Assembly: GCA_046582655.1 (NCBI GenBank)
Contig: JAYGDX010000259.1
Span: 5,250-69,249 of the forward strand
Source of the DNA: Candidatus Poribacteria bacterium
GTDB lineage: Bacteria; Poribacteria; WGA-4E; UBA9662
DNA length: 64,000 nucleotides
Direction: 5' to 3'
In this document: piece after piece, positions 2,781 through 62,060 of the stretch
How the letters are laid out: each line of letters starts with the position of its first letter
Position numbering within the stretch: position 1 is the stretch's first letter
Made by a program: the position numbers and the translations under genes
The notes under the pieces: model-generated
What the model saw: only the letters and a program-made list of their open reading frames with translations
Databases searched by the model: none
Told to the model about the DNA's origin: nothing

Positions 2781-4859
2781 TTAGAGTAGTTTGTCCAGGT
2801 CACCAACATCAGTTGTCGGTAGCTGGCAGGCGTAGTTCTGGCAAACATAGATCGTTGTCTTCCCATCAATTGACGTTTTGCTGGCTAGTAGCGGTATCAG
2901 TTCTTCAATTTTCTGCCTGTCTTCTGTATTTGGATTCAATAGGGCGACCACTTTATTAGGAACAAAGCGGCGATGGATATCCTTCAGAATTTCTTGTGTT
3001 TGTTCGCTTAATGGATTGCCGATGATAGCAATTTCTTTTGGAGTGTCAATTAGAAAATCAACTCCGCATAGCATCTGAGCTGATCCGGATGGTGCCGTTT
3101 TCATGGCGTGATCATAGAGTGAGAAAGTGGTCTTCGCTTTCTCAATCAAGTCGGGTTGGTTGAGAAGTATGGCTAGCCGTAACAGAACGTGAATAGCCAT
3201 TGAAGCACCGGACGGCGTAGCCCCATCATAAGCTGACTTGGAACGGACAATCAGTTCTGGATAATCTTTTCCGGTAAAGAAAAAACCGCCGTTTTGAGGA
3301 TCCCAGAATTGGCTGATCATGATTTGATTAAGTCGATCTGCTTCTCTCAGCCAGTAGGGATCAAAGCTGGCTTGATAGAGTTCGATTAGCCCTGCAATGA
3401 AATAGGAATAATCCTCTAAACAGGCGTTCAGATGACTCTTACCAGCGCGATGAGTTCGCAATAAATGCCCATTTTTTCGTACAAGTTCAGTCAGGATGAA
3501 TTTGGCTGATTTTTCGGCAGCTTCCAGATAGCGTAGATCACCCAGTATTTGGTAAGCAAGTCCCATGCTGCGGATCATTAAGCCGTTCCAACTAGTCAGG
3601 ATTTTGTCGTCTAGTCCAGGTTTGATTCGTTTGTCTCTGATCTCGAAAAGTTTCTTTTTACATCTATTTAGAATATTGACTAAATTAGCTTGATCAATTT
3701 TTATTTTTTTTGCATATAAGTCAGCCGGGGTTTTGACCCAGAGAATGTTTTGGTGCTCAAAATTGCCGTGGTCGGTGACATCGTAGAAATCGCAGAAAAT
3801 TTTGGCATCGGCTTGACCAAGAATCTGCTCAACTTCACCCGGTGTCCAGACAAAGAATTTCCCTTCCACTCCTTCACTGTCGGCATCCTGAGTGGAATAG
3901 AAACCACCATTTTGCTGATTGTACATTTCGCGTAAGACATAATCTAGTGTTTCTTCAACCACTTCTCGGTAAAAAGGTTTGCTGGTGGCTTGGAATGCTT
4001 CCAAATAAGCAACAGTCAGAAGTGAGTTATCGTAGAGCATTTTCTCAAAGTGGGGAACTAACCATATTTCATCAGTCGAATATCGGTGAAATCCACCTCC
4101 GAGTTGATCGTACATTCCGCCTCGCGCCATCTTTTCCAAGGTGAATTCGACTATATGCAGTGCCCGTGAGTTTCCTGATCTTTTCCAGTATCTCAATAAC
4201 AAAATCAATCCCATTCCGGGTGGGAATTTTGGTGCCTGACCAAATCCTCCATGTTGACTGTCAAATCGGTTTTGATAGTGATAGAAAGCCTGTTCGATAA
4301 TCTTGTCATCCAATAATAAATCGTCTACACTTTTCGGGTTAGAAATTTGGTTGATATGAGACACTAATTTTTCCGCTTGTTCATCAATATCTGCCCGTTT
4401 GTTTTGATAGGCATCCTTAACAGCCACCAGTAGTTTGGGAAAGCCGGGGCGTCCATACCGATCGTCGGGAGGGAAGTAGGTTCCGCCATAAAATGGTTTC
4501 CGATCTGGTGTCAAAAAGACTGTCATGGGCCACCCGCCGGAACCGGTCATAATTTGAACGGCACTCATATAAATCTCATCCAGGTCAGGTCGTTCTTCTC
4601 GATCGACTTTAATATTGATGTAGTGCTTATTCATGATGGCAGCAATCTCTTCGTTTTCGAAAGATTCCCGTTCCATGACGTGACACCAGTGGCAAGCAGA
4701 ATAGCCAATACTCAGCAGAATCGGTTTGTCCAGCTCTTTGGCTAGATTCAGCGCTTCTTCACCCCAAGGATACCAATCTACAGGGTTATGAGCGTGTTGT
4801 AACAAATATGGGCTGGTTTCATCGATCAATCGATTCGTGTGTTTAGGCGTGTTTTTCAT
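2781..4859 (-). CDS. Thioredoxin-domain protein of the DUF255/YyaL family (N-terminal thioredoxin fold plus a six-hairpin glycosidase-like domain).
   Basis: The 692-aa ORF begins ...[53 protein letters not shown].., the diagnostic N-terminus of this family. Its length and C-terminal region also fit. Confidence 0.9.
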
Positions 4860-5195
4860 GTTGGGAATCTATGCTTTTGCAATGCAATATTTGAAAAGTG
4901 AACTTGCAAATTTCCGACTATAGGCCAATAATGCTATGGCGATTATATCACCTTTCTGATGAAATGAGAAATCTGTTTACCAAATTGCATCTAGTAATCT
5001 ACTGTCTCTGATCTTTTCTAGAAATTGTACTATGGTAACTGCACACGAATTTTTACTTGTGATATACTGAGGATTGTTCTTTTGGAGATGTTCCTTTTGC
5101 TGCGTTTAGATGAAATGATTGCTGTTGGCATGAAGGATAAGTTCTTAGTACTATTACGATATTATCTAAGTTAAAATTGCAAAATAAGAATTGGG

Positions 5196-7097
5196 GTGCC
5201 CATGCAACCAAATTTGAACCAATCTACAGACGCTTTGTCAAATAATCAGATCATTTACTGGGATGAAGATGATCAGATTTCACACTTGTCACCTCAGGCT
5301 AGGCGCGTGGTACAGGTTGCTTGCGAATATGCCGATCGGTTTACTGATCCGAAAACAGGGATGGTTGAAGGGGATGAGCATCCGGGGCCAGATACTAGAT
5401 CCAGCTTATACTGTGCTATCGCCTTTCTGCTGAGTGGAGAGCCGAAAAGGATCAAAGCCGGCAAAGAACTATTGAAAAAAATTGGTAGCGCCGGAGGACA
5501 TTTCAACATGATGGCTGAGGCCTTGGCACTTGCTCAAATAGATCCGCTTCTGGATGACGAAGATCGGAAAAATTTCCATCAGGCAATTCGAGGCTTTATT
5601 GATTCAGATGGTGAGGATATTATGGCGGGCAGAAACATCAATATCCCGCTTGGTAACTGGACCGGACGAATTATAGCAGGTGTCATGTTTGATAGATTGG
5701 ATCATATTGATAGAGGGATCGAAGCACTTGAAAAGTTAACGGACATGGTTGCTGCACACGGCACTATCCCTGAATTTAACAGTCCTACCTATCACCCAGT
5801 AACGCTAATTTTACTGAGGATCATCTGCTTGTTCGGTGAGAAACGCACCATTCATCTGGCCGAGAAATTGGAGCGTCACCTCTGGTCTGAGATGGCGTGG
5901 CGATGGCACCCTAGAATTAAGCAGTTGTGTGGTCCATGGAGTCGAGCCTATCACGACAGTCTCTTCGGGGGATCGGGTATTGTCTTGATGCTGGCTGACA
6001 TGATGTGGGGGGCCTTCTATGATAAAGAGGTTGCTTATGATTATGAGCATGGTCATGATCATGCTTATGGTGGAATTCTCCCATTGTTAGCGCATCGTCA
6101 TCCGGTTGATGTCAGTGAAATCGCTTTAAGAAAAAAAACGCCAGTTACTATCACGGCATCGGCTGAACAGGCGATGGTCAAACTGGGAAACGAAGATGTG
6201 TTGACATGGATTCCTGGGGGCATTGCTGATCTAACAACTTGGATGGATGATAACCTTTCGGTTGGGACTGCGTCCCAAGCACATGTCCACGGTATGCAAA
6301 ACGGTAATTATATCGCTCAATGGACGCGAACTGGAAAACCAGTGGAGAAATTATCAGATTTGGGACAGGCGTTTGCTCGGTTTGTCCAAAACGGTAAAAG
6401 GCCAGGGACAGATGTTAGGAACCTATATCGGAACCATCATCATGGGGGTAACTTTGATATTGGCCCCAAACTTTGGGGCGATGATGGCCGTCCCTTTGCC
6501 ATTCAGTCCGGGCCGACGGCTTTGATCATATATTTACCGAAAAGGCAAGAAAGGTGGACTGTACAAACGTTAGAAGCGTTTGTGGTTTTTCCCAGATTGA
6601 ATACTATTGACGATGTAATTGTCAATAGTATTCAATCTGTTGACACCTACCAAGGGGCAGCCGAAGGCACGGTAGTCGTTCGAAGTGGTCATGCTTCACT
6701 GGGTCTTTGTTTCGTTGCCTGCGACCCTGAACTTACGACTCCAAAACTGGTAATCGAACGCCAAAACGATCATCTTTTTGTCGGATTACGTCTGATTGAG
6801 TTTCCGGATATGCGTGAATTGCCCGAATCGACTTACCGTCGTTATGGGGCCACGATTGGTGCTGAACTTCGTTATACGCCAAAGGGACAAGACGTTAGGA
6901 AATTGATCGAGGATCTGTCTACTGCCCGATTAACTGACCAATGGGAGATGGCAACCTTTGGTGGACCTCAGGAGGTTGAATTCCAGATTGGTACAACTCA
7001 GTTATACGGGCGTTTTGAACCGATCTCAGAAACCTGGTTACGACGGACCGTCACAGATCCGGTTGGTGATATCCGAAAAATTCAATTTACTAATTAG
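5196..7097 (+). CDS. Hypothetical cytoplasmic protein, possibly an alpha/alpha-toroid (heparinase II/III-like or alginate-lyase-like) fold.
   Basis: 633-aa ORF with no signal peptide. The segment NWTGRIIAGVMF...HGTIPEFNSPTYH resembles the N-terminal toroid region of heparinase II/III-like proteins; this is inferred from motifs only. It is the first gene of a tightly spaced plus-strand series (gaps of 47, 21 and 83 nt) running to 9561. Confidence 0.6.
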   Translation: MPMQPNLNQSTDALSNNQIIYWDEDDQISHLSPQARRVVQVACEYADRFTDPKTGMVEGDEHPGPDTRSSLYCAIAFLLSGEPKRIKAGKELLKKIGSAGGHFNMMAEALALAQIDPLLDDEDRKNFHQAIRGFIDSDGEDIMAGRNINIPLGNWTGRIIAGVMFDRLDHIDRGIEALEKLTDMVAAHGTIPEFNSPTYHPVTLILLRIICLFGEKRTIHLAEKLERHLWSEMAWRWHPRIKQLCGPWSRAYHDSLFGGSGIVLMLADMMWGAFYDKEVAYDYEHGHDHAYGGILPLLAHRHPVDVSEIALRKKTPVTITASAEQAMVKLGNEDVLTWIPGGIADLTTWMDDNLSVGTASQAHVHGMQNGNYIAQWTRTGKPVEKLSDLGQAFARFVQNGKRPGTDVRNLYRNHHHGGNFDIGPKLWGDDGRPFAIQSGPTALIIYLPKRQERWTVQTLEAFVVFPRLNTIDDVIVNSIQSVDTYQGAAEGTVVVRSGHASLGLCFVACDPELTTPKLVIERQNDHLFVGLRLIEFPDMRELPESTYRRYGATIGAELRYTPKGQDVRKLIEDLSTARLTDQWEMATFGGPQEVEFQIGTTQLYGRFEPISETWLRRTVTDPVGDIRKIQFTN

Positions 7098-7144
7098 AGT
7101 TGAGTTACTTATTAACACAATCCCAAGTGTGAAAGGAAGGATTT

Positions 7145-7921
7145 ATGGTAGATCAACGTAATATTGTTGGGATCGATGCCCAACAACTATTATCATCGCC
7201 GAAGGCCGTTGATTATTCAGGCATGGTACTGATTCCCAGCGGAACCTTTGAAATGGGCGGTCAAGAGATGGATAACGAACAACCTGTCCATACCGTCGAA
7301 ATTTCGGCTTTCTACATGGACGTTAGTCCGGTAACTGTTGGGCAGTATAGGCAGTTCGTTGAAGACACCGGATACAAAACGCCTAATTGGCGTGATATTT
7401 TAATCGATTCACCAACCGATGATCATCCAATTATCTATGTAAATTGGCATGATGCGATGGCCTATACACAATGGGTGGAGAAGAGGCTGCCGACAGAAGC
7501 AGAATGGGAATATGCTGCCCGTGGCGGATTGGATCGAGCTGAGTTTCCACGGCCAAACTTAGATGAAGATCCGCATAATAGTTCTGAATATGCCAATTAT
7601 TATGGAACGGTTCGCCAAACGAACATCGGTGGAACTTATCCGGCCAACGGTTATGGTCTAAATGATATGGCTGGGAATGTTTGGGAATGGTGTTTGGATG
7701 CTTATGAGCAGGAATTCTACGCTAAAAGTCCACAACGGAATCCTCTTGCTATTGGGGAAGATGAAACAGACGGGAATTTGATAAAACGCATGTATCGTGT
7801 GGTACGTGGTGGAAGTTGGAATAACTATTTCGGTGCGCTTCGCGTGGCTTTTCGTGGATACCAAGATTCTTTACGTGATTACGATTACAATGGATTTCGA
7901 TGTGTTTGCAGTGTCGTGTAG
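7145..7921 (+). CDS. FGE-sulfatase (SUMF1) fold protein that lacks the catalytic Cys pair of genuine formylglycine-generating enzymes.
   Basis: The 258-aa ORF has hallmark FGE-fold segments (MVLIPSGTFEMGG, YMDVSPVTVGQYRQFV, IYVNWHDAMAYTQW, NGYGLNDMAGNVWEWC, RVVRGGSW, GFRCV). The position that carries CHRSYCYRYR in true FGEs reads NNYFGALRVAFR, with no cysteines. The EgtB-type HX3HXE iron motif is also absent. Confidence 0.85.
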   Translation: MVDQRNIVGIDAQQLLSSPKAVDYSGMVLIPSGTFEMGGQEMDNEQPVHTVEISAFYMDVSPVTVGQYRQFVEDTGYKTPNWRDILIDSPTDDHPIIYVNWHDAMAYTQWVEKRLPTEAEWEYAARGGLDRAEFPRPNLDEDPHNSSEYANYYGTVRQTNIGGTYPANGYGLNDMAGNVWEWCLDAYEQEFYAKSPQRNPLAIGEDETDGNLIKRMYRVVRGGSWNNYFGALRVAFRGYQDSLRDYDYNGFRCVCSVV

Positions 7922-7942
7922 ATTAGGAAATTAGGAGGGTGG

Positions 7943-8698
7943 ATGGCCAATTCACAGGTTTTATCAACAGATCAAATCAGTTTTTTTAAAGAGAGCGGAT
8001 ACCTAATTCTAGAGAACTGCATTGAACCAGATCTTCTGGCGACTTGGCAGGAACAGTTCTGGTGGTGTTTAAATTCAAGCTTTGACGATCCGGACAGTTG
8101 GCCAACCGATCAAACTTTTATTGGTCGATGGCGTTTTACACCACCTTGTCCAAACATTAGTGCTGTTCCTATGGTTCAGGCTGCTGCTGATCAATTAAGT
8201 GGTGGCAATTTCATCGGTGGAGGTGGTGCCCCAATTATTAAGTGGCCGGATTCCGATGGTCAATGGTCGTTACCGAGGAGCAGCCATATTGATGGTTATG
8301 GCCCACCCTCCCAGCATCCGGAAGGCGGTTTAGTGCTTGGGGCAACCACCAATCTTCATGATGTTGAATCGAAAGGCGGCTGTTTTGTATACTGGCCAGG
8401 TAGCCATCTGTCAACATATGATTATCTCGTTCGGCATCCGGAGCAAATTAATGGCAGTTTTTTAGATAAGGAAGGTTGGAATTACACCGAATTCTCCAAG
8501 GGGTCTACTGATGGACCGACTGAATTTCACGCACCTGCCGGTACCGTCATCTTATGGCATGGGTTCATGTGTCACAACGGATCGCCGAATGTGAATACAA
8601 CGCCTCGCATTGGTATCTTTGGCCGCTGGCACTACAAAAAGCTTGAAGAGATGCGATATGACATTCTGGACGATCTCTGGAAACACTGGGGCATTTAA
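7943..8698 (+). CDS. Phytanoyl-CoA dioxygenase (PhyH) family Fe(II)/2-oxoglutarate oxygenase.
   Basis: The N-terminus FFKESGYLILENCI, an HxD motif (SSHIDGYG) and a distal His (WHGFMCHNGSPN) are all present in the 251-aa ORF. Confidence 0.85.
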   Translation: MANSQVLSTDQISFFKESGYLILENCIEPDLLATWQEQFWWCLNSSFDDPDSWPTDQTFIGRWRFTPPCPNISAVPMVQAAADQLSGGNFIGGGGAPIIKWPDSDGQWSLPRSSHIDGYGPPSQHPEGGLVLGATTNLHDVESKGGCFVYWPGSHLSTYDYLVRHPEQINGSFLDKEGWNYTEFSKGSTDGPTEFHAPAGTVILWHGFMCHNGSPNVNTTPRIGIFGRWHYKKLEEMRYDILDDLWKHWGI

Positions 8699-8781
8699 GC
8701 TTAAGCTTACAACTATGATTCAAACCAGTTAAACACTGGTCAAAAGCTACTTCAACAAGATCTCGATTAGGTCTCAGGTTT

Positions 8782-9561
8782 ATGAGTACGCTGTCAAAAC
8801 AGGAAATTCTTTTTTTTAAAGAAGAAGGCTATTTGGTTAAACGGGATGTCCTTGATCCTGAACTAATGGCATATGCACGCGAACGCTTATGGGAAGCGGC
8901 GCCTTCACAACTGAAGCGTGATCGGCTTGAAACTTGGATTGGCCCATTTGAAGAAAGGTGTGAAGATAAAATGTCGTATCGATCCGGATACCGGTGGAAT
9001 TATCGTCAACTTGGTGGTGAACCCTGGATGATTAGACTTCTACCTAAAAATCCATCGGTATGGTACATGGCGGAGCAACTATTGGGCAAAGGAATGCTAC
9101 GTGAACCAGATCGAGTTCGCGGTATTTATTGTACTTTACCCTACGGTGATGTGCCGAAAAAGCCAAGTGGTTGTCACGTTGATGGACATCCGTTTCATCT
9201 TGGTGTCGTTGGCTATATTGACGATGTCCCGCCGGAAGGTGGAGGGTTTATGGTCTGGCCGAAAAGTCACCTGAAGTTTTATTATGACTTCCATTCTCAA
9301 TATAGGACAGAACCAACCGATCAGTATGAAAAAGATCGAGCCTGTTTCAGTCAACAGGCAGGTGTTGATTGTCATGGTCGAGCTGGAGATATCGTCTTTT
9401 GGCATCATCGAGTTGGTCATGCCGCCGGTCATAACTATTCATGTCAGATTCGACAGGCGGTATTATATGATTTCAGAAAACAGGATATCGAACATACAAT
9501 GGAGGAATCCCCTTGTCAGAATATGTGGCGAGATTGGGCTGGTGTTGAAAGGAGTAGTTGA
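8782..9561 (+). CDS. PhyH-family Fe(II)/2-oxoglutarate oxygenase, paralog 2.
   Basis: The N-terminus FFKEEGYLVKRDVL, HxD (GCHVDGHP) and a distal His (WHHRVGHAAGHN) are present. The 259-aa ORF ends in a TGA stop. Confidence 0.85.
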   Translation: MSTLSKQEILFFKEEGYLVKRDVLDPELMAYARERLWEAAPSQLKRDRLETWIGPFEERCEDKMSYRSGYRWNYRQLGGEPWMIRLLPKNPSVWYMAEQLLGKGMLREPDRVRGIYCTLPYGDVPKKPSGCHVDGHPFHLGVVGYIDDVPPEGGGFMVWPKSHLKFYYDFHSQYRTEPTDQYEKDRACFSQQAGVDCHGRAGDIVFWHHRVGHAAGHNYSCQIRQAVLYDFRKQDIEHTMEESPCQNMWRDWAGVERSS

Positions 9562-21327: not shown

Positions 21328-21699
21328 ATGCCTGTATCTAGCCAGAATCACGATGTTGGGCAAGTCGACGCGTTCGAATCAGGAAGACCCTACGTCGTTT
21401 GTGTGGCAGGCAGGGATGTGGTTCTCGTCCGGCGGGGAAATGAGTTCTTTGCGATTCGGGACGTGTGTCCCCACCACGGAGCGAAACTATCCGATGGCCT
21501 GTTGACAGGAGAAGTATCAGCTAGCCGGCCTGGCGAGCAACCCGAACTGCTGCGTAAGGATGAGTTCCTAGTGTGTCCCTGACATGGTTGGAAGATTGAT
21601 GTTCGTACGGGGTGTTCATCGCTAGAGCCGGATTGCATCAGGGTAAGACGGTATGGCGTTCACATCGAGGGGGGACGTGTTCTTGTGGCTCTCTCGTGA
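21328..21699 (+). pseudogene. Rieske [2Fe-2S] ferredoxin (NirD-like, about 123 aa) interrupted by an in-frame TGA at the conserved Trp of the CPWHGW box.
   Basis: ORF 21328..21582 contains Rieske box 1 (CPHHGAKLSDG) and ends ...LVCP-TGA (21580-21582). The same frame continues HGWKIDVRTG...YGVHIEGGRVLVALS to a TGA at 21697-21699. A single TGG to TGA change would account for this. Confidence 0.7.
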
Positions 21700-22501: not shown

Positions 22502-23082
22502 ATGCCGGGAAATCCTATTTTTGTGTTTGCAGTCTTAATTTGCTTGATGGCAAGTGTGTCGTGTGCTTACGAACATGCGGGAAATATAACTGGCTGGAAC
22601 CTCTATGGGACATGCCAGAATGAAATAACTTTTAACTGTACAAACCAACAAATAATAAAAATAAATATTTTAACCGACAATATATTTCGGGTGAGATTCT
22701 CCGCCGATGGGTCACTACCAGCTTCAAGGATGATTGGACAATGGAATCTTGTACGTTCGAACAACGGTTTTCCCACCCCGACTTTACTGCTGTGGATGAG
22801 GAAAAGGCTGTTTTGATAAACACAGCAGAACTCGAGATAAAAATAGATAAAAGTCCTTTCCTCATTAGCATTTTCGACAGAGAAAACCGCTTAATAGCTA
22901 AAAAAGCGCTTCCCTGGGAATGGGCAGCGATGGTGATGCCTATTTACAAATGGATTAGCTTGCTGATGAGCACCTTTTTGGTGTGGTTGAGGGACTCGGT
23001 GCGATAAAACGAGATGTTCCTTTTGAAGCAGCGAAAATTTCAAGCATAGAACTGCATGGGATAGAACCCAAAGAAGGGTGAT
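22502..23082 (+). pseudogene. GH31-like (alpha-glucosidase/xylosidase-type) N-terminal remnant, frameshifted and truncated.
   Basis: Three successive reading frames carry the fragments. Frame A (22502..22816) has a lipoprotein-like signal plus IIKINILTDNIFRVRFSADGSLPAS. Frame B (22741..23007) has DKSPFLISIFDRENRLIAKKALPWEW. Frame C (22971..23082) has HLFGVVEGLGAIKRDVPF (compare YGLGE). The fragments end where the converging MFS gene begins. Confidence 0.45.
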
Positions 23083-23097
23083 AACTCTGGGCCAAAC

Positions 23098-24306
23098 TTA
23101 TATTGTGTTTTCTAAAGGACTTTGCGGTTCCTTACCGAATATATGGGTGATTAAAGCAGCCAAAAGGGCGATAATGGATGAAATCCTAAACATCACAAAT
23201 CTACCGTGTGTTTTTTCAATCCCACCACATATTTTCCCCCCGATCATCCCACCCAATCCCCAAACAATACCACTGTATAAAGTTTGTCCACTGGCACGAA
23301 CCTGATCCGGCAACATGGTACTGATGAAGTTAACGATTCCAATATGAAAGGCAGTATAAGTTAGCGCATGAAAAAGTTGCAGAAACAAGATCGCGATTAT
23401 TGATGGTTTCAGCGAATAGAAAAATAATCTCATGGCCATACCTAGCATACCGATAATCACTATCCATTTTATTCCGGTCCATTTTATTAGATTACCGATA
23501 ACAAACATCATCCCAATCTCTGATGCAACGCCTAATGCCCAGAAGAATCCCTGTGAACTGTCAGGGACTCCAAGATCTTCAAGATAAATTGAAAAGAAAA
23601 TATAATAAGCCTGCATAGCTGCCCTGGCCATTAACCCTGTAATCAAAGTTAATACAAAGTTGACGGTGATAAAGCGGTTGAGCTGGTTCCATTTGAAAGG
23701 TTCTCTAACCTCCACTTCAGCAGGATTTGGAATCATCAGTACCCACACGACACCTAATAACCTAAAAGTACTGAAAAATATAAATACCGATAATAGTCCA
23801 TAGCCAAACTCTGAGGTGATGTTTCCCTCGAACTCGTCCTTAATCATCAACTTAAATAGGAGCATTGAAATTCCAATTCCAATCGATCCCCAAAGTCGTA
23901 TTCGGCCGTAGTCGCCCCCATGTTGCTTAATGAAACCCAACGTCAGTGCATCATTGATCGGGGCAACAGGCGTTTCCAAAAAGGAAAAAAGCATAATAAT
24001 ACCCAATATAGCATAATAGTTTTTTGTAAAAAGCAACAATGGGTATACCAAACTGGCAGACAAGAAAAGCAGAGCTATGATTCGTCTCATGTCCTTGACT
24101 GAATCAGCAACAATCCCCCAAATTGGCGAGGAGAATATGCTCATGAATGAAAAGATGGCAGCAACGGTTCCAAGCTGCGAACTATTTAACCCCGCACGCT
24201 TTAGGTAGAGATTCATGTAGATGAGTATTCCACTTTTTGGACTAAGCGAAATAAAGTGGAGCAAGCTATAATGGCGGCGGGAACTTTTATTAGTAATTTC
24301 TGTCAT
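23098..24306 (-). CDS. Major facilitator superfamily transporter.
   Basis: 402-aa ORF with about 12 hydrophobic helices and the MFS loop motif (GIVADSVKDMRRII). The start is ATG and the stop TAA. Confidence 0.85.
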   Translation of the reverse strand: MTEITNKSSRRHYSLLHFISLSPKSGILIYMNLYLKRAGLNSSQLGTVAAIFSFMSIFSSPIWGIVADSVKDMRRIIALLFLSASLVYPLLLFTKNYYAILGIIMLFSFLETPVAPINDALTLGFIKQHGGDYGRIRLWGSIGIGISMLLFKLMIKDEFEGNITSEFGYGLLSVFIFFSTFRLLGVVWVLMIPNPAEVEVREPFKWNQLNRFITVNFVLTLITGLMARAAMQAYYIFFSIYLEDLGVPDSSQGFFWALGVASEIGMMFVIGNLIKWTGIKWIVIIGMLGMAMRLFFYSLKPSIIAILFLQLFHALTYTAFHIGIVNFISTMLPDQVRASGQTLYSGIVWGLGGMIGGKICGGIEKTHGRFVMFRISSIIALLAALITHIFGKEPQSPLENTI

Positions 24307-24400: not shown

Positions 24401-25792
24401 TCAAGACCGGTAAGCTTCCCAAAAGGCTTGTCCTTGTTCCTGTATGTCTCCGTATTCAGTTTGCCACTGCTTAAGTTCGTTTCTTAACCGCTTTAGTGTT
24501 TCTATATATTGACCATTATTGCTCAAGTTAACAGTTTCTCGCGGATCGTTTAACAAGTCAAAGAGCTGTGTTTGAGCATGTCTGTCACCGACAACATATT
24601 CAATCAATTTATATTGTTGATCACGGATACCCCTCTGCAGTCCTTCGTAGGCAAAGTGCAGGTATTCTCGAATTTGTTCCGCTGGTCGTTCAAGATGAGG
24701 AATCAAGCTTTTGCCCTCTACTGTTTTTGGATATTGAATCCCGATTAAATCACAGAGTGTCGGAAAAATATCGATCAGGTAAGTTAATGCTTTTCGCCTT
24801 TCGCCTGATGGGATGTTAGGGCCAGCTAGAATGAGGGGAACATGTACACTGTGATCATAAACATTTTGTTTGCCCATTAAACCATGTTGACCAATCGCCA
24901 GTCCATTATCACCAGCGAACAGTATAATTGTGTCATCTAGAATTCCTTTCTCTTTTAGTTTGTTCATTACTCGACCGACAGCTGCATCCAAATGGCTAAT
25001 CATGGCATAATATTCGGCAATGTGTCGTTGTACCTCTGATTTGGTTCGGGGAAATTCTGCCAGCAGTTCATCGCGCCCTTTCATCCAACCGTTGTCGAAT
25101 GGATGCTCCGGCACGAAATTCTCAGGTATCTCGATTTTTCGCGGATCATACATCTGTAAAAAATCTTCCGGCATACTCCGCGGATCGTGGGGTGCCATGA
25201 ATGAAACATAGGCGAAGAAGGGGGTATCATCGGATTGGTTCTCAATAAAGTCGATAGTTGCCTCAGTGAACAGGTCGGTAGAGTGTTTACCTGCGGTGAT
25301 ACGGTCGCAACGTTGCCAACTGACGTGGTTGTTGCTATGCGGATTATCGATTTTGGGATTGATGGGATAATTGCCGGTTGGATCATAATCGCAGGCAGGA
25401 ACATTCCAGTGATCCGCCATTCCACCAAAGAAAATCTCGGCTCCGGCATTAAAACTTCGGGCATAAGAACGGATGCCGTTATGCCATTTCCCAGTACCGA
25501 ACGAAGTATAACCTGCCTGTTGAAGCGTTTCACCTAACAGGGCATGTTCCTCTGGTATAGATTGCCCCTGCCGGTCAAGATGATAGAGTGTTCGTCCGGT
25601 ATGAAGCATTCCGCGGCTGGGCATACATACCGCTCCACATGATCCGCCCATGATGTAACTGTTAACAAATGTTGTTCCTTGAGATACAATTTGATCGAGA
25701 TTCGGTGTGGAAATCTCAGGGTTATTGACACTTCCAATTGTGTCAAATCGTTGGTCATCTGTGAAGAAAAAAACGATATTCGGTTGATCCAT
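24401..25792 (-). CDS. Cys-type sulfatase (arylsulfatase family), with no signal peptide.
   Basis: The 463-aa ORF starts MDQPNIVFFFTDDQRFD and has the active-site signature SCGAVCMPSRGMLHTG (C-x-P-s-R-xxx-L-TG). It ends with a TGA stop. Confidence 0.9.
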   Translation of the reverse strand: MDQPNIVFFFTDDQRFDTIGSVNNPEISTPNLDQIVSQGTTFVNSYIMGGSCGAVCMPSRGMLHTGRTLYHLDRQGQSIPEEHALLGETLQQAGYTSFGTGKWHNGIRSYARSFNAGAEIFFGGMADHWNVPACDYDPTGNYPINPKIDNPHSNNHVSWQRCDRITAGKHSTDLFTEATIDFIENQSDDTPFFAYVSFMAPHDPRSMPEDFLQMYDPRKIEIPENFVPEHPFDNGWMKGRDELLAEFPRTKSEVQRHIAEYYAMISHLDAAVGRVMNKLKEKGILDDTIILFAGDNGLAIGQHGLMGKQNVYDHSVHVPLILAGPNIPSGERRKALTYLIDIFPTLCDLIGIQYPKTVEGKSLIPHLERPAEQIREYLHFAYEGLQRGIRDQQYKLIEYVVGDRHAQTQLFDLLNDPRETVNLSNNGQYIETLKRLRNELKQWQTEYGDIQEQGQAFWEAYRS

Positions 25793-28261: not shown

Positions 28262-30741
28262 CTAGAATTGCACCGATATAGATGCATTAATTCTGCGTCC
28301 AAAACCATAAAATATCTTTGTTGTTTCTGCATTATGTTCTTTCCCATCAATTCCATCACTGGCATAGGCAGTATCAAGTAGGTTTAGGATATGCAGACCG
28401 AAGACTAGATTATAACTCGACAGCTCCATACTGTAACCGGCGTGTAAATCAAGCAATGAAACAGAGTCTAATTTATATGCGTCATCCCTTGTCTTGTTAT
28501 TTCTGTTTTCAGGATTAAAGGCAGCATAGTGGTTATCGAAGTATTTAAGTACGCCAGTAATCCCTAAATCCGCAATTGGAGTTAGATTAATCCTTCCAGA
28601 AACTTGCGTTTGAGGCGCGTCACCCACATGCAGCCCATCAGAATAGATTTTAACATCGTATGTGTCTTTACGTCCGTAATCATCTGTTACTGTGGCAGCG
28701 ACGTCTCCACTCCAAACCCAGCTTCCAATTAACATTGAGCCTCCTAACGAAACTAATTCATTTAGTATGAATAAGCCATCAAGCTCTATGCCGCTGTGGT
28801 TGGCATTCAGTCCTTGAATGTTGTAGATGTTTCAACCGTCATCTTTCCCTTTGCTAGTTCTTACGAGTGCTTTGTCCTGCCATACTGTATAGTAGTAATC
28901 TATATCCACGATATATTTACTTGAACGATAACCCGTACCTAATTCAAAAGCTGTGATCTTTTCATTCTTAGCTTCCGGATTAACCGTATTATTATAATTC
29001 AAGTAAACATTATGGAAGTTAGGCGCAATTGATAAACTGCCGATATTTCCGAACACATTTATCTGAGAGTTAACGTTATAGTTAGCACCAACCTTTGCAG
29101 CGTATCCAGGGAAATTGGCCGTCTCAGACATTTTCTCTTCCGGTTCGTAATTGAAAGGATCCTCCCTCTGGTATTGAGTGTTTGAAAAAGCCAACGACCT
29201 GAAGGCTGACAGCGTATCCGTCTTATATTCAGTTTGTCCAAATTCCCCAATCCATTTATTGTAGCCGGTATTGAAATAAGCGATTTTATCCCCAACTTTA
29301 GCGGCGTTACCATCTGGTACATTTTTATCACTGTAATCAACGTAGTAATCTCCACCGAGCAAGTTTTGAACCTCTCGATAGTGAATGCCAGAATAAGCTC
29401 GGGCATCAATTCCACCACTTAATGTTATTTGATTTGTCAACAAGTGATTGAGCGATGAGATAACCCCATACCAGTTATGATGGTTTACCGATGCCCGAAT
29501 GATATACTTCGAGCGTTTTTCAGACTTCGAAAACATATGTTCCATCGTCCCCATGTTTGGGATTGATGTATTTCCAATTTTTTTCTCATCATCCCCATCA
29601 TCCCACCTTAGTATAACCACGTGAGTTGAGTGGCCCCGTACCACCGCCACGGCCATTAGAACCATAGATACTGTAGATAGCTTTGCTTTATTGCCAACCT
29701 TCCAATACCAGTTCAAGTTATAAACTGGTTTGTGATAATAGTTGGTACGACTGTTGATCAACCATTTTCCACCGACCTTTTTAAGTAACTGAATATTTCC
29801 ACCAAACAACGCGCTGGAAATGAAGTCCATAGACTCACCACCATAAGATCCTTCTTTCATTAAATTTCTTGCATCATCGCCTACATATCCCCAACCACTT
29901 CCTGTGGAACCGCTATTAACTTTGCGGTCGTCTGGGCTACCGTATCTAGTATCGTAATTAAAAGATTCCCAGTCCTTGGCAGTGTGTTTATTATCTCCGT
30001 CGCGTTGCCCATGCTGCTGAGGCGCTCCAAGAAGTGTAAAATCAAATGAATGATTACCAAAGGTCTTATTGGCGGTGAAAAAGTAAGAGTACGCATCCGT
30101 CCATGTTCCATCTACATAACCATTCCCGGTTTTCTTTTGTAACAGAAATGATGTTGCGATGTCGTTATTCAATTTACCGGTGGAGTAAGACAAAGTGGTC
30201 TTCAAAAAACTTTGAGAACCAAATTCTTGTTTAAAGGTACCACCCTTTTTCATATCAGCAGCAGAGGTAAGGACGTTGATAGTTCCACCAACCGAAGCAA
30301 TAGCGAAGTTACTGGCTCCTAAACCTCGTTGCACTTGAATAGAATTAGTAACATCACTCATTCCATCCCAATTGGACCAGTAAACCCAGCCATTTTCCAT
30401 ATCGTTAACAGGGACTCCATTAATTCTGCCACGTTTCGCTGATTAAATCCGCGAACATTAACTCGGCTGTCTCCTGATCCACCATCCGACATCGAAGCGT
30501 AAACGCTAGGAGTCTCACTCAATATCATTGGTAAATCTCGCGAAGCGAGCCTGTCACTTAAATCAGATTTGCTAACATCAGAAAAAGCAACAGGAGTTTC
30601 CCTGACTGTGGCTCGATTGGCTATAACACTAATTTCTTCCAATTCTATTTCTGTAGGTTCTTCGACATTTTCTTTTTGTCCAAAAGCCGAGAATGTAGAA
30701 ATCATTGACACAAAAAAGATTAATATGGAGAGCTTTTTCAT
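28262..30741 (-). pseudogene. TonB-dependent receptor (about 810 aa) disrupted by a -1 frameshift near 30419-30425 and an in-frame TGA at 28832-28834.
   Basis: Three ORFs are collinear. 30358..30741 has the signal peptide plus plug (RVNVRGFNQRNVAE). 28832..30400 has the barrel and starts MENGWVYWSNWDGM. The join requires one extra nt within ttaatt (VAEL|NGVPVNDMENGW). The barrel ORF ends ...KGKDDG-TGA, and the same frame continues NIYNIQGLN...GSMLIGSWVW (ORF 28262..28735), ending with the typical terminal ...ISVQF. Confidence 0.75.
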
Positions 30742-31036: not shown

Positions 31037-32467
31037 TTATTTTAGCAATTCGTAAAAATCTCGATCTCCACGAATATTGTCGAAAGCAGTATCTATCTTT
31101 AACAGTTCAGTTGCTTCATGTCCAACAAGACTTATCGCTTGCTGAAGAGAACTTATAGCTAATCCTTTTTGGTTATTTAGTGAATACATGCGCGCTAAGC
31201 TATAGTAACCTTTTCCATACTCGGGATCAATACGCATAGTTTCGTTCAAGTGATTAATGGCTTTATCGATCAGGCCTTTGTTTGCGTAAATTATTCCTAA
31301 ATTATAGTGAGCAGAGATGCTATAAGGATTAATAAGGATAGCTTCTTTTAGGTGATAAATAGCTTCGTCAATTTTCTGGTTTTGGTCATAAGCAATATCT
31401 GCTAGCATAAGGTGCGCTTTCTCATAATTCGGGTTGACGCGAATAACCTCTCGCATGTGATGAATAGCCTGGTCCGGATTTCCTTGTTTACTATAGATAG
31501 ATCCCAAATTGTAATGCGCCTGTAAAAAGTCGGGATTGATGCGAATAACCTCTCGCATATGATGAATAGCCTGATCCGGATTTCCTTGTTGTTGATGAAA
31601 AGTCCCTAAATCGTAGCGGCCATATTCATCATTAGGGTTGATACGGATAACTTCTTGGTAGACCTTGATAGCTTTATCTAACTCTCCATGTCGAGAATAA
31701 ACTAGGCCAAGGTTGACATGCGCTTCGAACAAATTGGGATTGATACCAATAGCTTGTTCATACATTTCAATGGCTTTTTCGATTCTGCCCTGTTCAGAAT
31801 AGGCAACGCCTAGATTGACGTAGGATGAGGCATCTTTGGGATTGATACGGATGACTTCTTTCAGGTGATGAATAGCCTCGGTTATCTTGGCTTGCTCTCC
31901 ATAAACTATTTCACTCAATGAACGGTGCGTTTCCTCATGGTTGGGGTTGATGCGGACAACCTCCTTTAAGTGATAAACGGCCTTTTGAATTTCACCCTTT
32001 ACCTTATAGCAATTGCCTAAACTCAGGTGCGCACGGTAGTAATCAGGGTTAATCTGTATTGCTTTTTGATACTCTTCTATTTTATCTTCGGTTTCCTCCA
32101 AAACCTGCCCTATTAAATAGTGATAAATCTCATTTCCCGGATGTTGTTTAATTTTCGCCCGATATTCATTGATAACCTGATTGGATCTTCCTTGTTCCGC
32201 CATGAGATGGATATATTCAAGATGAGCTTTTAAATGCAGTTGATCTATCCGAATGGCATTCTTAAATTCCTCTATCGCTTTCCGTGGGTTTTGCTGTTTT
32301 ATACTGGCTCCAAGCTCGTAATGATTTTTTGCTGTTTCATGTAGATTAACTTCATCTTTTTTCTCATAGGATTTGATTTTCTTATCGACACAACTAGTCG
32401 CAACTATAAGAAAACATACCGTCAATATTAGATTTGAAAGAGGAAGCCTAATGGATATATTTTTCAA
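31037..32467 (-). CDS. Tetratricopeptide-repeat lipoprotein.
   Basis: 476-aa ORF with a signal peptide and lipobox (LIVATSC). About ten 34-residue TPR units recur (AI..Y.EAIRINPN... and A..NLG..Y). The start is TTG. Confidence 0.8.
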   Translation of the reverse strand: MKNISIRLPLSNLILTVCFLIVATSCVDKKIKSYEKKDEVNLHETAKNHYELGASIKQQNPRKAIEEFKNAIRIDQLHLKAHLEYIHLMAEQGRSNQVINEYRAKIKQHPGNEIYHYLIGQVLEETEDKIEEYQKAIQINPDYYRAHLSLGNCYKVKGEIQKAVYHLKEVVRINPNHEETHRSLSEIVYGEQAKITEAIHHLKEVIRINPKDASSYVNLGVAYSEQGRIEKAIEMYEQAIGINPNLFEAHVNLGLVYSRHGELDKAIKVYQEVIRINPNDEYGRYDLGTFHQQQGNPDQAIHHMREVIRINPDFLQAHYNLGSIYSKQGNPDQAIHHMREVIRVNPNYEKAHLMLADIAYDQNQKIDEAIYHLKEAILINPYSISAHYNLGIIYANKGLIDKAINHLNETMRIDPEYGKGYYSLARMYSLNNQKGLAISSLQQAISLVGHEATELLKIDTAFDNIRGDRDFYELLK

Positions 32468-58385: not shown

Positions 58386-61300
58386 TTGAGAATCTTGAGA
58401 ATCTTGGCAACCTTAGTTCTTGTGCCTGCAATTTCTTGGGCACAGAATCCTCTGATTGAAAATGGATCATTTGAGTTTGGTACTGAATCTCCGCAAGGGT
58501 GGGGACTTTCAAATGAGGCCTTCGGTAAATGGGAACTTTTTGGTGAAACAGGAGAACGTTGCATTTCAATTAGGGGGGATGGGAAGCCGGGAGATCTTTC
58601 CTTTTGGCGATCTTCAACAAGTTCGATTTTGCCGCACCAAGTTTACCGCTTGAACTTCTCGGTGAAGGGATCAGCAGAAGCTGACGGTGGGACTGCCGTG
58701 GTAGGGTCAAATCTTATAACACGTGATTTAGTTGTCGGAACAGATTGGCAACGGCATGAATTGATATTTACAACGCCTATCAATACACTTGGCGCTTTCC
58801 TTCGCTTTGGCCAATATGAAACTAAAGGGAAGATTTTCTTCGATGATGTTGGTTTGATTGATATTACTCCGATCCCTCGTACAAGACACGATTTAGATCT
58901 AGGTGAAGGGGAATTAATTCACGGCGGGATATATACTTTCCGGCCAGATTATACCAGTATGACCAGTAACACATCACGGAATTTGGTCAGACATAGCGCC
59001 TATTTCAACACTGACCGCTGGATTTTGCCAAAAGATTCAGAGATCGTTTATCGGCATGATTTGCCTGGCTATCAGCAGATCGAAGGGGCGATAAGTGTCC
59101 AGGCCAATGTACACGATGGAGGCGAATGTATTGTTGAAATAGGAGTAGATGAAAGTAACTGGACAGTTGTTGGTAAGGTCAGCCAATCTGGCACTCAAAC
59201 TTTCTTACTTCTAGACGATATTCTTCCAGCTGAAGATATTTATGTGCGCTTGCGTTCAACTAATAAGGCCGAAGTCCTGAGTTATGAGTACCGAAGTGAA
59301 ATTGATGATGCTGAGCTTGATCTAATAGGAGAAACCCACTACGCTGAGGTCAGTATTCCGTTTAATTCAGTAGCTGTCGAATTTGAAACGGTTGGTGACT
59401 TAAAAACAGGCGATAAATACAATGAAGTAAGTCTGTTGATTGCCAACCTTCAAGACTTCGCAGTTGAATTAGAAACCTCTCTTGCTATTCAAAAAAAGGG
59501 TGATGGGGAAGCCAAACATTTTGGGACTAAAGTGGTGTACATCGGTTTTTCCGAAACTTGGCGTGTGCGGTGGCCGAGTTATGAGCTCATTGAAGCCACT
59601 GACTATGTGATGACTGTTCAGATAAAAGATATTTTTAATGGTGACACAGTCTATAAGGCTATACTTCCATTTAGTGTCTCCTCGCTTTATGATGCCAATT
59701 TTGGAATATTGCTTGGACAGACTGAAACTGTGGGGGCTATCTGGTGGACAGATGGTGCAAATAAAATCAGCCGTGACCGCGCTATACCTAAAAGGGTTGA
59801 ATCGCTGGTTAGGTTGTCTGCTGCCAAGAATGAGTCCGAATCGTTTCAGTTGGTTATTACCCCTGACCGGTCTTTGAACCAGTTACGTGTCCAATCCAGC
59901 AGTCTAATTTATAATACTAATGAAATACCAGCTGCGAATGTAGAATTAGCAACAGTTAACTACGTTCTGGTACAGAATCCGACGGACGAGAGTGGTTCAA
60001 GAGGATATTGGCCAGATCCGATTCTTCCTCACAACCAACCGGTACAACTGAATCCGGGGCAGAACTATCCGTTCTGGATTACTATCCGGGTGCCGAAAGG
60101 CATTGCCGCGGGAAAGTACCGGGGATCGATATCAATTACCGGTGCCATGGGGCCACCTCCCCCACCTAAAGTTGCTAAGGAACAGGTTGAGACGCAACAA
60201 GTTACTCAAACCGTCCGTGGCGTACAAAAAGATAGTGATTGCGAGAATTTCTCAGGAGAAATGGGATCAGATCTTGAGTTAGAACAGTTTTTTGCTGCTT
60301 CTAACTTGGCTAAACGGGATTCTAACCCTGAGGAAGGAGCCTTGTGGTCTGAAACTTTTGAAATTGAACTACAGGTTTGGGATTTTGAGTTGTCTGACGA
60401 TACCCACATTCAGTCCGCTTTTGGAATTGATCCCGATAGTATTAGGCAGTACCATCACCTTGAAAATCAAGGTGAGCTTGAGACGGTTTTAGGTAAGTAC
60501 TATCAAAATTTTGCAGATCATCGCATCTCACCAATAAATCCGATGGCGTTGCATCCAATTCAAACTGACTTTGAAGGTCACTGGTGGGAAGGTGGTGAAA
60601 TTATCGACACAGATAAAGCTGAAGGTCTTTTCAGCATACGAGTTGAGGACGGTCATAAGGATCGAGATTCTTTCGCAATCGGCAAAAAACTGATTTCGGT
60701 GGATTCAACCAAAACTTATGAATTTGGTTTTTTCGTAAAAACTGCTGAGAAGAGGCAACCGTACGAGGTCAACATTCTATGTTATGATAAGAATGGAAAG
60801 ATTTTGCGTGAGGTTTCATTTGATTATGTCGGGCGTGGCATCTGGCAAAAGGAAGAAATACGTATTGGCTCTTTACCGCAGGGGACAGAATCAATAACAG
60901 TGAAACTTTCACCTGTTCAATTGACGGATTCTGGAGTGGAAACCGGTATTGCCTGGTTTGATCGATTATCGTTATATGAAGCATCGCAAAGCATGAATCT
61001 AATCCCTGATCCTAATTTTGAAAGATTGATTTCTGATTGGAATATAACTCTGGATACAGCGAGTTTTGAATTGGCTGCCAGAAATTACGTCGATGGATTA
61101 CGATTTAATGCTTTCCAAATTCCGCTGGAAGGATCAGGATTCAGCAATTCTTACGAAAGAACTGTCGGAGTCATTGAAAATTATGAATCAGGGTCGTCTG
61201 AATATGAAGTTCTTTTTTCGGGCTATTTAGCCAAACTGGAGAACTATCTTGAACAGAATGGTTGGTTAGACAAGGCCTATGTATTTTGGTTTGATGAACC

Positions 61301-62060
61301 GGAGCAAAAAGACTATGGCTTTGTCAGAACAGGAATGGATCAAATTGGCGACTCAGCTCCCAAACTAACCCGTATGCTGACTCATGGTGTTGATCCAGAA
61401 TTAGCAGGTAGCGTTGATCTGTGGTGCCCACTCACTCCCAACTTCAATCCAGTTTTAGCCCAAGAACGAAAGGCTGCAGGGGATAAGATTTGGTGGTCAG
61501 TACGTAATGCTCCAAAGTCTCCTTACGCAGGGCTTTTTATCGATCATCATGGTATCGAAATGCGAATGTGGCTATGGCAAACATGGAAATATGGTCTGGA
61601 CGGAATTTATATCTGGAATACAAATTATTGGATGAGCCCGCTTTTGCATTCCGATGATAGATTACAAAACCCATACTTAGATCCAATGAGTTATCAATCC
61701 GGTTATGGCTTGCCAGTAGGTTATGTAGGTTACTGGGGTAATGGCGACGGTCGCTTTCTTTATCCTCCTATGGAAGCATTGGAAGGATATAAATCAATTG
61801 AGGGACCAGTCAACTCGATTCGCTGGGAAATGCTTAGGGAAGGTATTGAAGATTATGAGTATTTCTGGATGTTGAAGGACCAAGTTGAAAAGCTCAAAGC
61901 TGAGGATCCTGAGAATCAACTTCTTCGTGAAGTGGAAGGATACCTCATAATACCCACAAGCATCGTTTCCAATATGACAGAATTCACTAAGGTCCCAGAG
62001 TTGCTTTCCACACATCGAACAGACGTTGCCCAATCAATTGAAAAGCTATTATACCGTTAG
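58386..62060 (+). CDS. 1224-aa secreted protein: signal peptide, CBM4/9-like carbohydrate-binding modules, Pro-rich linker, and a C-terminal DUF4091-like (GH123-associated) putative glycoside hydrolase domain.
   Basis: The start is TTG with a strong GAGGAGAG RBS. The signal peptide is LRILRILATLVLVPAISWA. The N-terminal modules open NGSFE..G...W like CBM_4_9, and the linker reads GPPPPPKVAKEQVETQQ. The C-terminal segment YVFWFDEPEQKDYGF...DLWCP...WWSV...GLDGIYIWNTNYW resembles DUF4091. There is no T9SS tail. Confidence 0.75.
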   Translation: MRILRILATLVLVPAISWAQNPLIENGSFEFGTESPQGWGLSNEAFGKWELFGETGERCISIRGDGKPGDLSFWRSSTSSILPHQVYRLNFSVKGSAEADGGTAVVGSNLITRDLVVGTDWQRHELIFTTPINTLGAFLRFGQYETKGKIFFDDVGLIDITPIPRTRHDLDLGEGELIHGGIYTFRPDYTSMTSNTSRNLVRHSAYFNTDRWILPKDSEIVYRHDLPGYQQIEGAISVQANVHDGGECIVEIGVDESNWTVVGKVSQSGTQTFLLLDDILPAEDIYVRLRSTNKAEVLSYEYRSEIDDAELDLIGETHYAEVSIPFNSVAVEFETVGDLKTGDKYNEVSLLIANLQDFAVELETSLAIQKKGDGEAKHFGTKVVYIGFSETWRVRWPSYELIEATDYVMTVQIKDIFNGDTVYKAILPFSVSSLYDANFGILLGQTETVGAIWWTDGANKISRDRAIPKRVESLVRLSAAKNESESFQLVITPDRSLNQLRVQSSSLIYNTNEIPAANVELATVNYVLVQNPTDESGSRGYWPDPILPHNQPVQLNPGQNYPFWITIRVPKGIAAGKYRGSISITGAMGPPPPPKVAKEQVETQQVTQTVRGVQKDSDCENFSGEMGSDLELEQFFAASNLAKRDSNPEEGALWSETFEIELQVWDFELSDDTHIQSAFGIDPDSIRQYHHLENQGELETVLGKYYQNFADHRISPINPMALHPIQTDFEGHWWEGGEIIDTDKAEGLFSIRVEDGHKDRDSFAIGKKLISVDSTKTYEFGFFVKTAEKRQPYEVNILCYDKNGKILREVSFDYVGRGIWQKEEIRIGSLPQGTESITVKLSPVQLTDSGVETGIAWFDRLSLYEASQSMNLIPDPNFERLISDWNITLDTASFELAARNYVDGLRFNAFQIPLEGSGFSNSYERTVGVIENYESGSSEYEVLFSGYLAKLENYLEQNGWLDKAYVFWFDEPEQKDYGFVRTGMDQIGDSAPKLTRMLTHGVDPELAGSVDLWCPLTPNFNPVLAQERKAAGDKIWWSVRNAPKSPYAGLFIDHHGIEMRMWLWQTWKYGLDGIYIWNTNYWMSPLLHSDDRLQNPYLDPMSYQSGYGLPVGYVGYWGNGDGRFLYPPMEALEGYKSIEGPVNSIRWEMLREGIEDYEYFWMLKDQVEKLKAEDPENQLLREVEGYLIIPTSIVSNMTEFTKVPELLSTHRTDVAQSIEKLLYR

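Follow-up and report, generated by a model that had tools for sequence, protein, structure and literature searches.

Stepwise decay of a TonB-dependent outer-membrane receptor gene in deep-sea hydrothermal-plume Candidatus Poribacteria

Can a receptor gene that is split over three open reading frames (ORFs) still be a gene? The question is raised by a 64,000-nucleotide (nt) stretch of contig JAYGDX010000259.1, from a metagenome-assembled genome (MAG) of a Candidatus Poribacteria bacterium, which we analyzed as a whole and refer to as the window. On its minus strand, from 30741 down to 28262, lie the collinear pieces of a TonB-dependent receptor. A first-pass annotation, made from the sequence alone, took this receptor to be inactivated twice, by one missing nucleotide in the plug and by an in-frame TGA in the barrel, and kept a systematic sequencing problem as the alternative. 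Our data document at least six disabling lesions, the order in which strains carry them, their recurrence in independent assemblies, and a shift to neutral substitution. The locus is very probably a pseudogene, a TonB-dependent outer-membrane transporter gene that no longer functions and is decaying progressively in free-living deep-sea hydrothermal-plume Candidatus Poribacteria.

The whole pseudogene, from ancestral ATG to ancestral TAG, occupies 28262..30741 on the minus strand, and its three ORFs encode 127, 522, and 157 amino acids (aa). The plug frame starts with the ATG at 30741 and reads through to ...RVNVRGFNQRNVAE, and the conserved continuation, INGVPVNDMENGWVYWSNW, sits in the -1 frame, with the frame break at 30425/30426. 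The 127-aa ORF (30358..30741, minus strand), which by translation and a Pfam Plug match holds the signal peptide, the TonB-box-like sequence EEISVIANRA, and the first half of the plug, is genuine coding sequence down to ~30426; its final ~22 codons are out-of-frame read-through. The 522-aa ORF stops at the TGA at 28832-28834, and the same frame then goes on through the C-terminal barrel segment 3´ of the TGA (28262..28831, minus strand) to its end, the final aromatic in ...ISVQF at 28265, and the TAG at 28262-28264. The 157-aa hypothetical protein starts within this segment, at 28735. Both breaks named in the first-pass annotation therefore exist where it had placed them. Split into three ORFs that occupy two frames, and interrupted by the TGA and by hidden indels, the window copy has no continuous plug-barrel frame, so that it is a relic of its family and not a working member. 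No second copy of the gene was found in the window by tblastn.

An intact ortholog provides the reference for what has been lost. P0148, found among cluster members, is an uninterrupted 866-aa protein encoded on locus L006, with ~87% nt identity to the window copy. Its gene, like the window copy, is followed downstream by the SDR and PhyH genes, and this shared gene order indicates that it is a true ortholog. When P0148 was used as a tblastn query, two high-scoring segment pairs, in frames -2 and -1, together spanned residues 1-866. The window locus is thus collinear with the ortholog throughout, which bears out the earlier proposal that the plug and barrel segments follow one another up to a terminal ISVQF.

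We mapped the lesions by DNA alignment to the intact ortholog on L006 and to its near-identical relative L001, and checked them column by column in 13 loci. Measured against L006, at least six are disabling: a 4-nt deletion, a -1, a +1, another -1, a 113-nt deletion, and the TGA. The first of these, a deletion of TCCT relative to the ortholog (junction 30425..30426, minus strand), is found in all pseudogene-clade loci with sequence at this position, and is the lesion that had been described as one missing nucleotide. At the DNA level the site reads GCAG[TCCT]AATTAATGG, the bracketed bases being absent, such that VAVLINGVP becomes VAE/INGVP; the Val-Leu of VAVLINGVPVND is lost and the frame is shifted directly before the invariant INGxPVNDME. 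A 3-nt deletion at ~30169 (minus strand) is in frame and harmless.

The remaining lesions break the coding sequence of the barrel five times, all on the minus strand. A 1-nt deletion with its junction at 29668..29669 (ACAGTA-TCTATGG) throws the invariant YGSNGRGGGTGPL strand out of frame, and is not found in the basal strain L018 or in variants with a 98-aa ORF. A 1-nt insertion at 29606..29608 (CTAAGGTGGG, against CTAA-ATGGGG in the ortholog) is common to the whole pseudogene clade. An A run at 29578..29584 has lost one nucleotide (GAGAA-AAAAATTGG, against GAGAAGAAAAGATGG), and at 29534..29535 lies the junction of the 113-nt deletion, with which ortholog codons ~406-443 are lost and the frame is changed. 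Finally, the in-frame TGA at 28832..28834, at ortholog codon 677, is a young T-to-G change from a Leu codon. The first-pass annotation had proposed that comparison with an intact ortholog would reveal the ancestral residue at this position, and it does: the codon is TTA (Leu) in L007 and L018 and TTG (Leu) in the ortholog.

The four mid-gene indels (-1, +1, -1, and -113) total -114 nt, and so the 522-aa ORF stays open by chance. It has two out-of-frame stretches, SMVLMAVAVVRGHSTHVVILR and IGNTSIPNMGTMEHM, where YGSNGRGGGTGPLNSRGYTK and NWKYINPKHGDDGTY belong, and it is missing 38 codons. The homolog P0001 shows the sequence that is misread in the window ORF, as ...KLSTILYGSNGRGGGTGPLNSRGYTKWGDGDKEKKRWKYINPKHEDDGTYDWEDM...(38 residues)...FSKSEKRSK. 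Thus, the notion of a gene hit twice underestimates the damage, and the description of the segments as individually well conserved does not hold for the 522-aa piece, with its four hidden frame-breaking indels, while its other part, three collinear pieces, does. The invariant elements INGxPVNDME and Y362/S364/G366/G368-370 have both been struck. On the predicted structure of the ortholog, the 4-nt deletion falls in a plug strand, and the first -1 deletion in the strand that carries Y362, S364, G366, and G368-370. Two long barrel strands flank the surface-loop region, with its short helices, that the 113-nt deletion would take out, and the TGA falls on the first residue of a barrel strand, cutting off the last nine predicted strands.

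Lesions that differ among strains capture the order of these events. L018 and several of the 98-aa ORF variants are without the -1 deletion at 29668 and keep the 4-nt, +1, -1, and 113-nt lesions, and L007 and L018 have TTA at the TGA site of the window. Eight lesions are private to L018, namely seven indels (-3, -1, -1, +1, -1, -17, and +2 nt) and a TGA at Trp123. In the order that we reconstruct, the gene was under strong purifying selection until recently, and the common ancestor of the present population already had the 4-nt plug deletion, the +1, the -1, and the 113-nt deletion. The main clade next acquired another -1 deletion, which re-opened the 522-aa ORF by chance. The TTA-to-TGA nonsense mutation followed in a subclade that includes the window, and other strains acquired private lesions.

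The substitution pattern documents a clear switch from constraint, with a ratio of nonsynonymous to synonymous substitution rates (dN/dS) of 0.12, to neutrality. Between the window and L006, this value (Nei-Gojobori) holds for the whole gene at a dS of 0.50, with 110.5 nonsynonymous and 193.5 synonymous changes. The first-pass annotation had suggested calculating dN/dS across the separate pieces; successive pieces give 0.17, 0.10, 0.24, 0.11, and 0.11, a range of 0.10 to 0.24. Within the pseudogene clade, we counted 30 nonsynonymous changes, two of them nonsense, and 5 synonymous ones. These counts fit the neutral expectation of 78% nonsynonymous changes (p=0.41) and reject an omega of 0.12 (p=1.5e-11), and they differ from the window-ortholog changes in a McDonald-Kreitman-type Fisher test (p=1.7e-8). 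Across the same 13 sequences, the window and 12 related loci, the flanking SDR gene (774 bp) has no single-nucleotide polymorphism (SNP) and the flanking PhyH gene (897 bp) has two. The gene has a long history under purifying selection, and the changes since its inactivation are neutral.

The same damage recurs well beyond the window. In NCBI, its pieces are the proteins MFP6723105-107, encoded on an 88,342-bp contig of a MAG labeled Candidatus Poribacteria bacterium. Several datasets contain the same set (127 or 115, 522, and 157 aa), on at least 21 contigs in all; the 522-aa form, P0124, by itself reaches this count of at least 21. Sources are plume metagenomes from the Lau Basin (Abe, Kilo Moana, and Tui Malila), other ENA and Logan assemblies, and NCBI MAGs, and the contigs that reach far enough share the flanking ArgRS, DCC1-like, TPR, SDR, and PhyH genes. 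In a 16-sequence alignment, no shared lesion is missing from any of the 13 close loci with sequence at the position concerned.

Several observations weigh against a decaying pseudogene, or limit how strongly it can be argued. Among these contigs, the same Lau Basin reads were in some cases assembled more than once, so that fewer than 21 datasets, though probably at least five, are truly independent. Few SNPs were counted, and most of them come from one divergent strain, L018. An amino-acid relative-rate test against outgroups found no significant excess of changes in the window (18, against 11 on the L006 branch; p=0.26); inactivation is accordingly recent relative to the split from the sister lineage, and relaxed selection gains no independent support from this test. 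As the 522-aa ORF is open and ~130 nt upstream are conserved with the ortholog, transcription may continue, and it is from the sequence that we infer that no functional product is made.

The open frame leads to the rival reading that survives best, that the fragments are functional and that the 522-aa ORF, or separate plug and barrel pieces, are expressed and used, perhaps as an outer-membrane protein in split or truncated form. We regard this as very improbable. It could draw on the later -1 deletion, which gave the main clade a long open frame again, and on the NCBI annotation of the pieces as coding sequences (CDSs). However, restoration of a frame has a one-in-three chance and requires no selection, and the product of the 522-aa ORF would be without a signal peptide or plug, would misread the invariant YGSNGRGGGTGPL strand, would lack the 38 codons, and, judging by the model, would stop nine barrel strands early. 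The substitutions in this ORF are neutral, and it is truncated differently among strains.

That the gene is intact in the organism, and that the breaks are sequencing or assembly errors at A/T-rich or homopolymer sites, seems to us extremely improbable. One lesion does lie in a run of seven A residues (29578-29584), and the window derives from a MAG. Nevertheless, identical lesions are seen across different projects, assemblers, and samples; the 4-nt deletion, the 113-nt deletion, and the T-to-G transversion are untypical of errors; the flanking genes are intact on the same contigs; and strains carry the lesions in a nested, tree-like pattern. Because the lesions recur in independent assemblies, the sequencing problem that the first-pass annotation had kept as its alternative is removed.

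Programmed recoding has next to no chance of being correct. In this reading, a full-length receptor would be made by a -1 frameshift from plug to barrel and by read-through of the TGA or its decoding as selenocysteine, Trp, or Gly. In its favor, the shift needed is -1, and the two frames have 43 nt in common (30358-30400). However, this shift must fall within ~20 nt to keep INGVPVND, a stretch that lacks any X XXY YYZ heptamer, and the RNA downstream of it shows no better folding than shuffled sequence (z=0.15). The frame is continuous here in the intact ortholog and in all other homologs, the orthologs having four more nucleotides, and four further indels would still garble the barrel. TGA is the stop of 14 of the 42 long ORFs in the window, and the TGA site is Leu in the close strains (TTA) and in the ortholog (TTG). 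The absence of a programmed-frameshift signal, already remarked upon in the earlier reading of the sequence, was thus confirmed. We also considered TGA as a Trp or Gly codon, prompted by several mid-gene TGAs in an alternative frame, and rejected it, that frame being a product of the indels and TGA being a common stop in the window. Selenocysteine and a reassigned code were set aside on the same stop-codon count and on the Leu found in relatives.

The pseudogene itself is thus real and of an ordinary kind, and only its recurrent loss sets it apart. Like ordinary bacterial pseudogenes, the window locus has multiple disabling lesions nested among strains, a neutral substitution ratio, and pieces annotated as short CDSs; the one difference is that two independent null alleles occur beside an intact one in a sister lineage. 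This lineage is 99.6-99.9% identical within itself and has three allelic states of the receptor. The intact allele is that of L006, the only intact copy found. A second allele has a TGG-to-TAG change at codon 120 (L001 and L022, from two samples). The third combines a +1 insertion at codon ~70 (L019 and L020; L021 begins downstream of the site) with a CAA-to-TAA change at codon 139, the latter present in L019, L020, and L021, including a Tara Oceans sample. The receptor gene has therefore been inactivated independently at least three times across two sister pelagic Poribacteria lineages with ~87% nt identity.

The data fit more than one account of such repeated loss. The transporter presumably became dispensable in this lifestyle, or its loss became advantageous. 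Recurrent loss may reflect nothing other than dispensability of the gene. Recurrent knock-out would also fit escape from a phage or bacteriocin-like toxin that uses the receptor, and would likewise fit a recent niche shift that removed the substrate. We think it rather unlikely, though worth keeping in mind, that loss of the receptor was favored by selection and not merely tolerated. If the knock-outs were selected, an outer-membrane receptor would be under antagonistic pressure in the deep ocean. Apart from the receptor, we observed that the downstream PhyH gene is apparently fragmented in L019 and L020, where it encodes 76 and 117 aa, against 209 aa.

The ancestral gene encoded a ~866-aa TonB-dependent outer-membrane transporter of an uncharacterized subfamily, with a signal peptide, a plug, and a large β-barrel. 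Used as a query, the repaired conceptual protein retrieved thousands of TonB-dependent receptors, the closest matches being P0001 (82% identity) and P0002, the latter a 522-aa ORF nearly identical to that of the window. A scan of genome contigs with P0001 yielded nothing closer than distant relatives in Bacteroidota (36-38% identity), and it was exact cluster look-ups that led to the close ones. The 127-aa piece of the window matches Pfam Plug PF07715 with E=9.7e-7 and 29.7 bits (cutoff 23.9). The break in the frame limits this match to profile positions 2-59 of 107, whereas P0148 matches over positions 2-107 (E=6.2e-13). In the 127-aa piece, the predicted signal peptide is followed by EEISVIANRA, a candidate TonB box that resembles the consensus acidic-x-hydrophobic-V-hydrophobic-x-A. 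At the other end, the ancestral frame finishes with ...RRINASISVQF, as does the ortholog, so that the terminal aromatic residue, the outer-membrane β-signal, is present.

TonB-dependent transporters combine a plug (PF07715) with a 22-strand barrel. The first piece of the window copy and the ortholog share the Plug domain with PqqU, YncD, FhuA, FecA, and BtuB; the window copy, unlike these transporters, is broken and cannot form a barrel. A family profile built from 25 members matches solved TonB-dependent receptors, and a direct sequence search of the PDB with the ortholog found nothing. An AlphaFold model of the ortholog (pLDDT 78.9, pTM 0.81) matches PqqU, FhuA, YncD, FoxA, FecA, and BtuB over its full length (E 1e-32 to 1e-25). 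It superposes on the solved transporters with a TM score of up to 0.84, normalized to the target, at only 11-14% sequence identity, and its barrel is longer than that of siderophore receptors, with large loops. From these structure matches, a barrel is predicted for the intact ortholog only. In NCBIfam, only sub-threshold plug matches to BtuB and MxcH were obtained, and as no equivalog reaches its cutoff, no substrate can be assigned.

Receptors of ~900-940 aa from Marinimicrobia, Cloacimonadota, and Bacteroidota (such as P0004, P0072, P0095, and P0099) form a related, uncharacterized subfamily and are 40-58% identical over the plug and barrel. They share with the Poribacteria proteins the invariant motifs INGVPVNDMENGWVYWSNW, APQQHGQR, NYYHKP, YGSNGRGGGTGPL, and SVNHHNWYG. 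Most of these relatives carry an N-terminal CarboxypepD_reg domain (PF13715), which the 866-aa Poribacteria orthologs lack, beginning instead with a signal peptide and the plug.

Public records list the locus as three genes ("Plug domain-containing protein," "TonB-dependent receptor," and "hypothetical protein") where there should be one pseudogene, and this three-CDS annotation inflates gene and transporter counts for pelagic Poribacteria. Judging by titles and abstracts, none of the papers listed in searches on Poribacteria, TonB-dependent receptors, and plume MAGs seems to deal with the locus. The pseudogene provides a small, well-resolved case in which the stepwise decay of a gene can be followed in a free-living marine bacterium that has not been cultured, with the order of lesions captured by strains.

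The pseudogene stands between two kinds of neighborhood. To its right are the core genes for ArgRS, RsfS, a cytidylyltransferase-family protein, BatD, and FtsZ, and to its left are genes of an accessory type, encoding an SDR, PhyH dioxygenases, a sulfatase, an MFS transporter, an amidohydrolase, and an FGE-sulfatase. Other genes on this side are also broken. In the small Rieske [2Fe-2S] gene (21328..21699, plus strand), a TGA at 21583-21585 replaces the Trp of the second cluster-binding motif, CPWH, so the nonsense codon noted there in the first-pass annotation is real. Within one 90% cluster, more than 40 contigs carry the intact 123-aa allele and at least 12 carry the null 84-aa allele; since both forms occur across contigs, the nonsense allele is polymorphic among strains. 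At 22502..23007 (plus strand), two overlapping short ORFs make up a frameshifted and truncated N-terminal remnant of a GH31 enzyme (Gal_mutarotas_2 / DUF4968), with nothing more of the enzyme ahead of the MFS gene at 23098. As its 88-aa piece recurs on 45 contigs, this is a fixed gene remnant. With the receptor lesions, the polymorphic Rieske allele, and the GH31 remnant, the earlier suggestion that pseudogenization is under way in this stretch is well founded.

The Rieske gene also falls in a GC-rich block at 15.9-21.6 kb (50-56% G+C, against ~41% elsewhere), together with an Amidohydro_2 gene and ORFs of 740 and 321 aa that have no Pfam match. This block may be a horizontally acquired island; no tRNA gene that could flank it was found in the window. 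Directly upstream of the pseudogene, the TPR-repeat gene (31037-32467, minus strand) varies in length. It encodes 476 aa in the window, and in near-identical strains (L009-L013) either 462 or 510 aa or two parts of 354+139, 338+156, or 372+139 aa, which suggests changes in repeat number or frameshifts in the repeats. Elsewhere in the window, at 2781-9561, 24401-25792, and 58386-62060, lie genes for a sulfatase, an FGE-sulfatase, several PhyH-like dioxygenases, a DUF255/GH88-like protein, and a 1224-aa GH123 protein. Such gene content points to the degradation of sulfated glycans, and may hint at the class of substrate that the receptor once took up.

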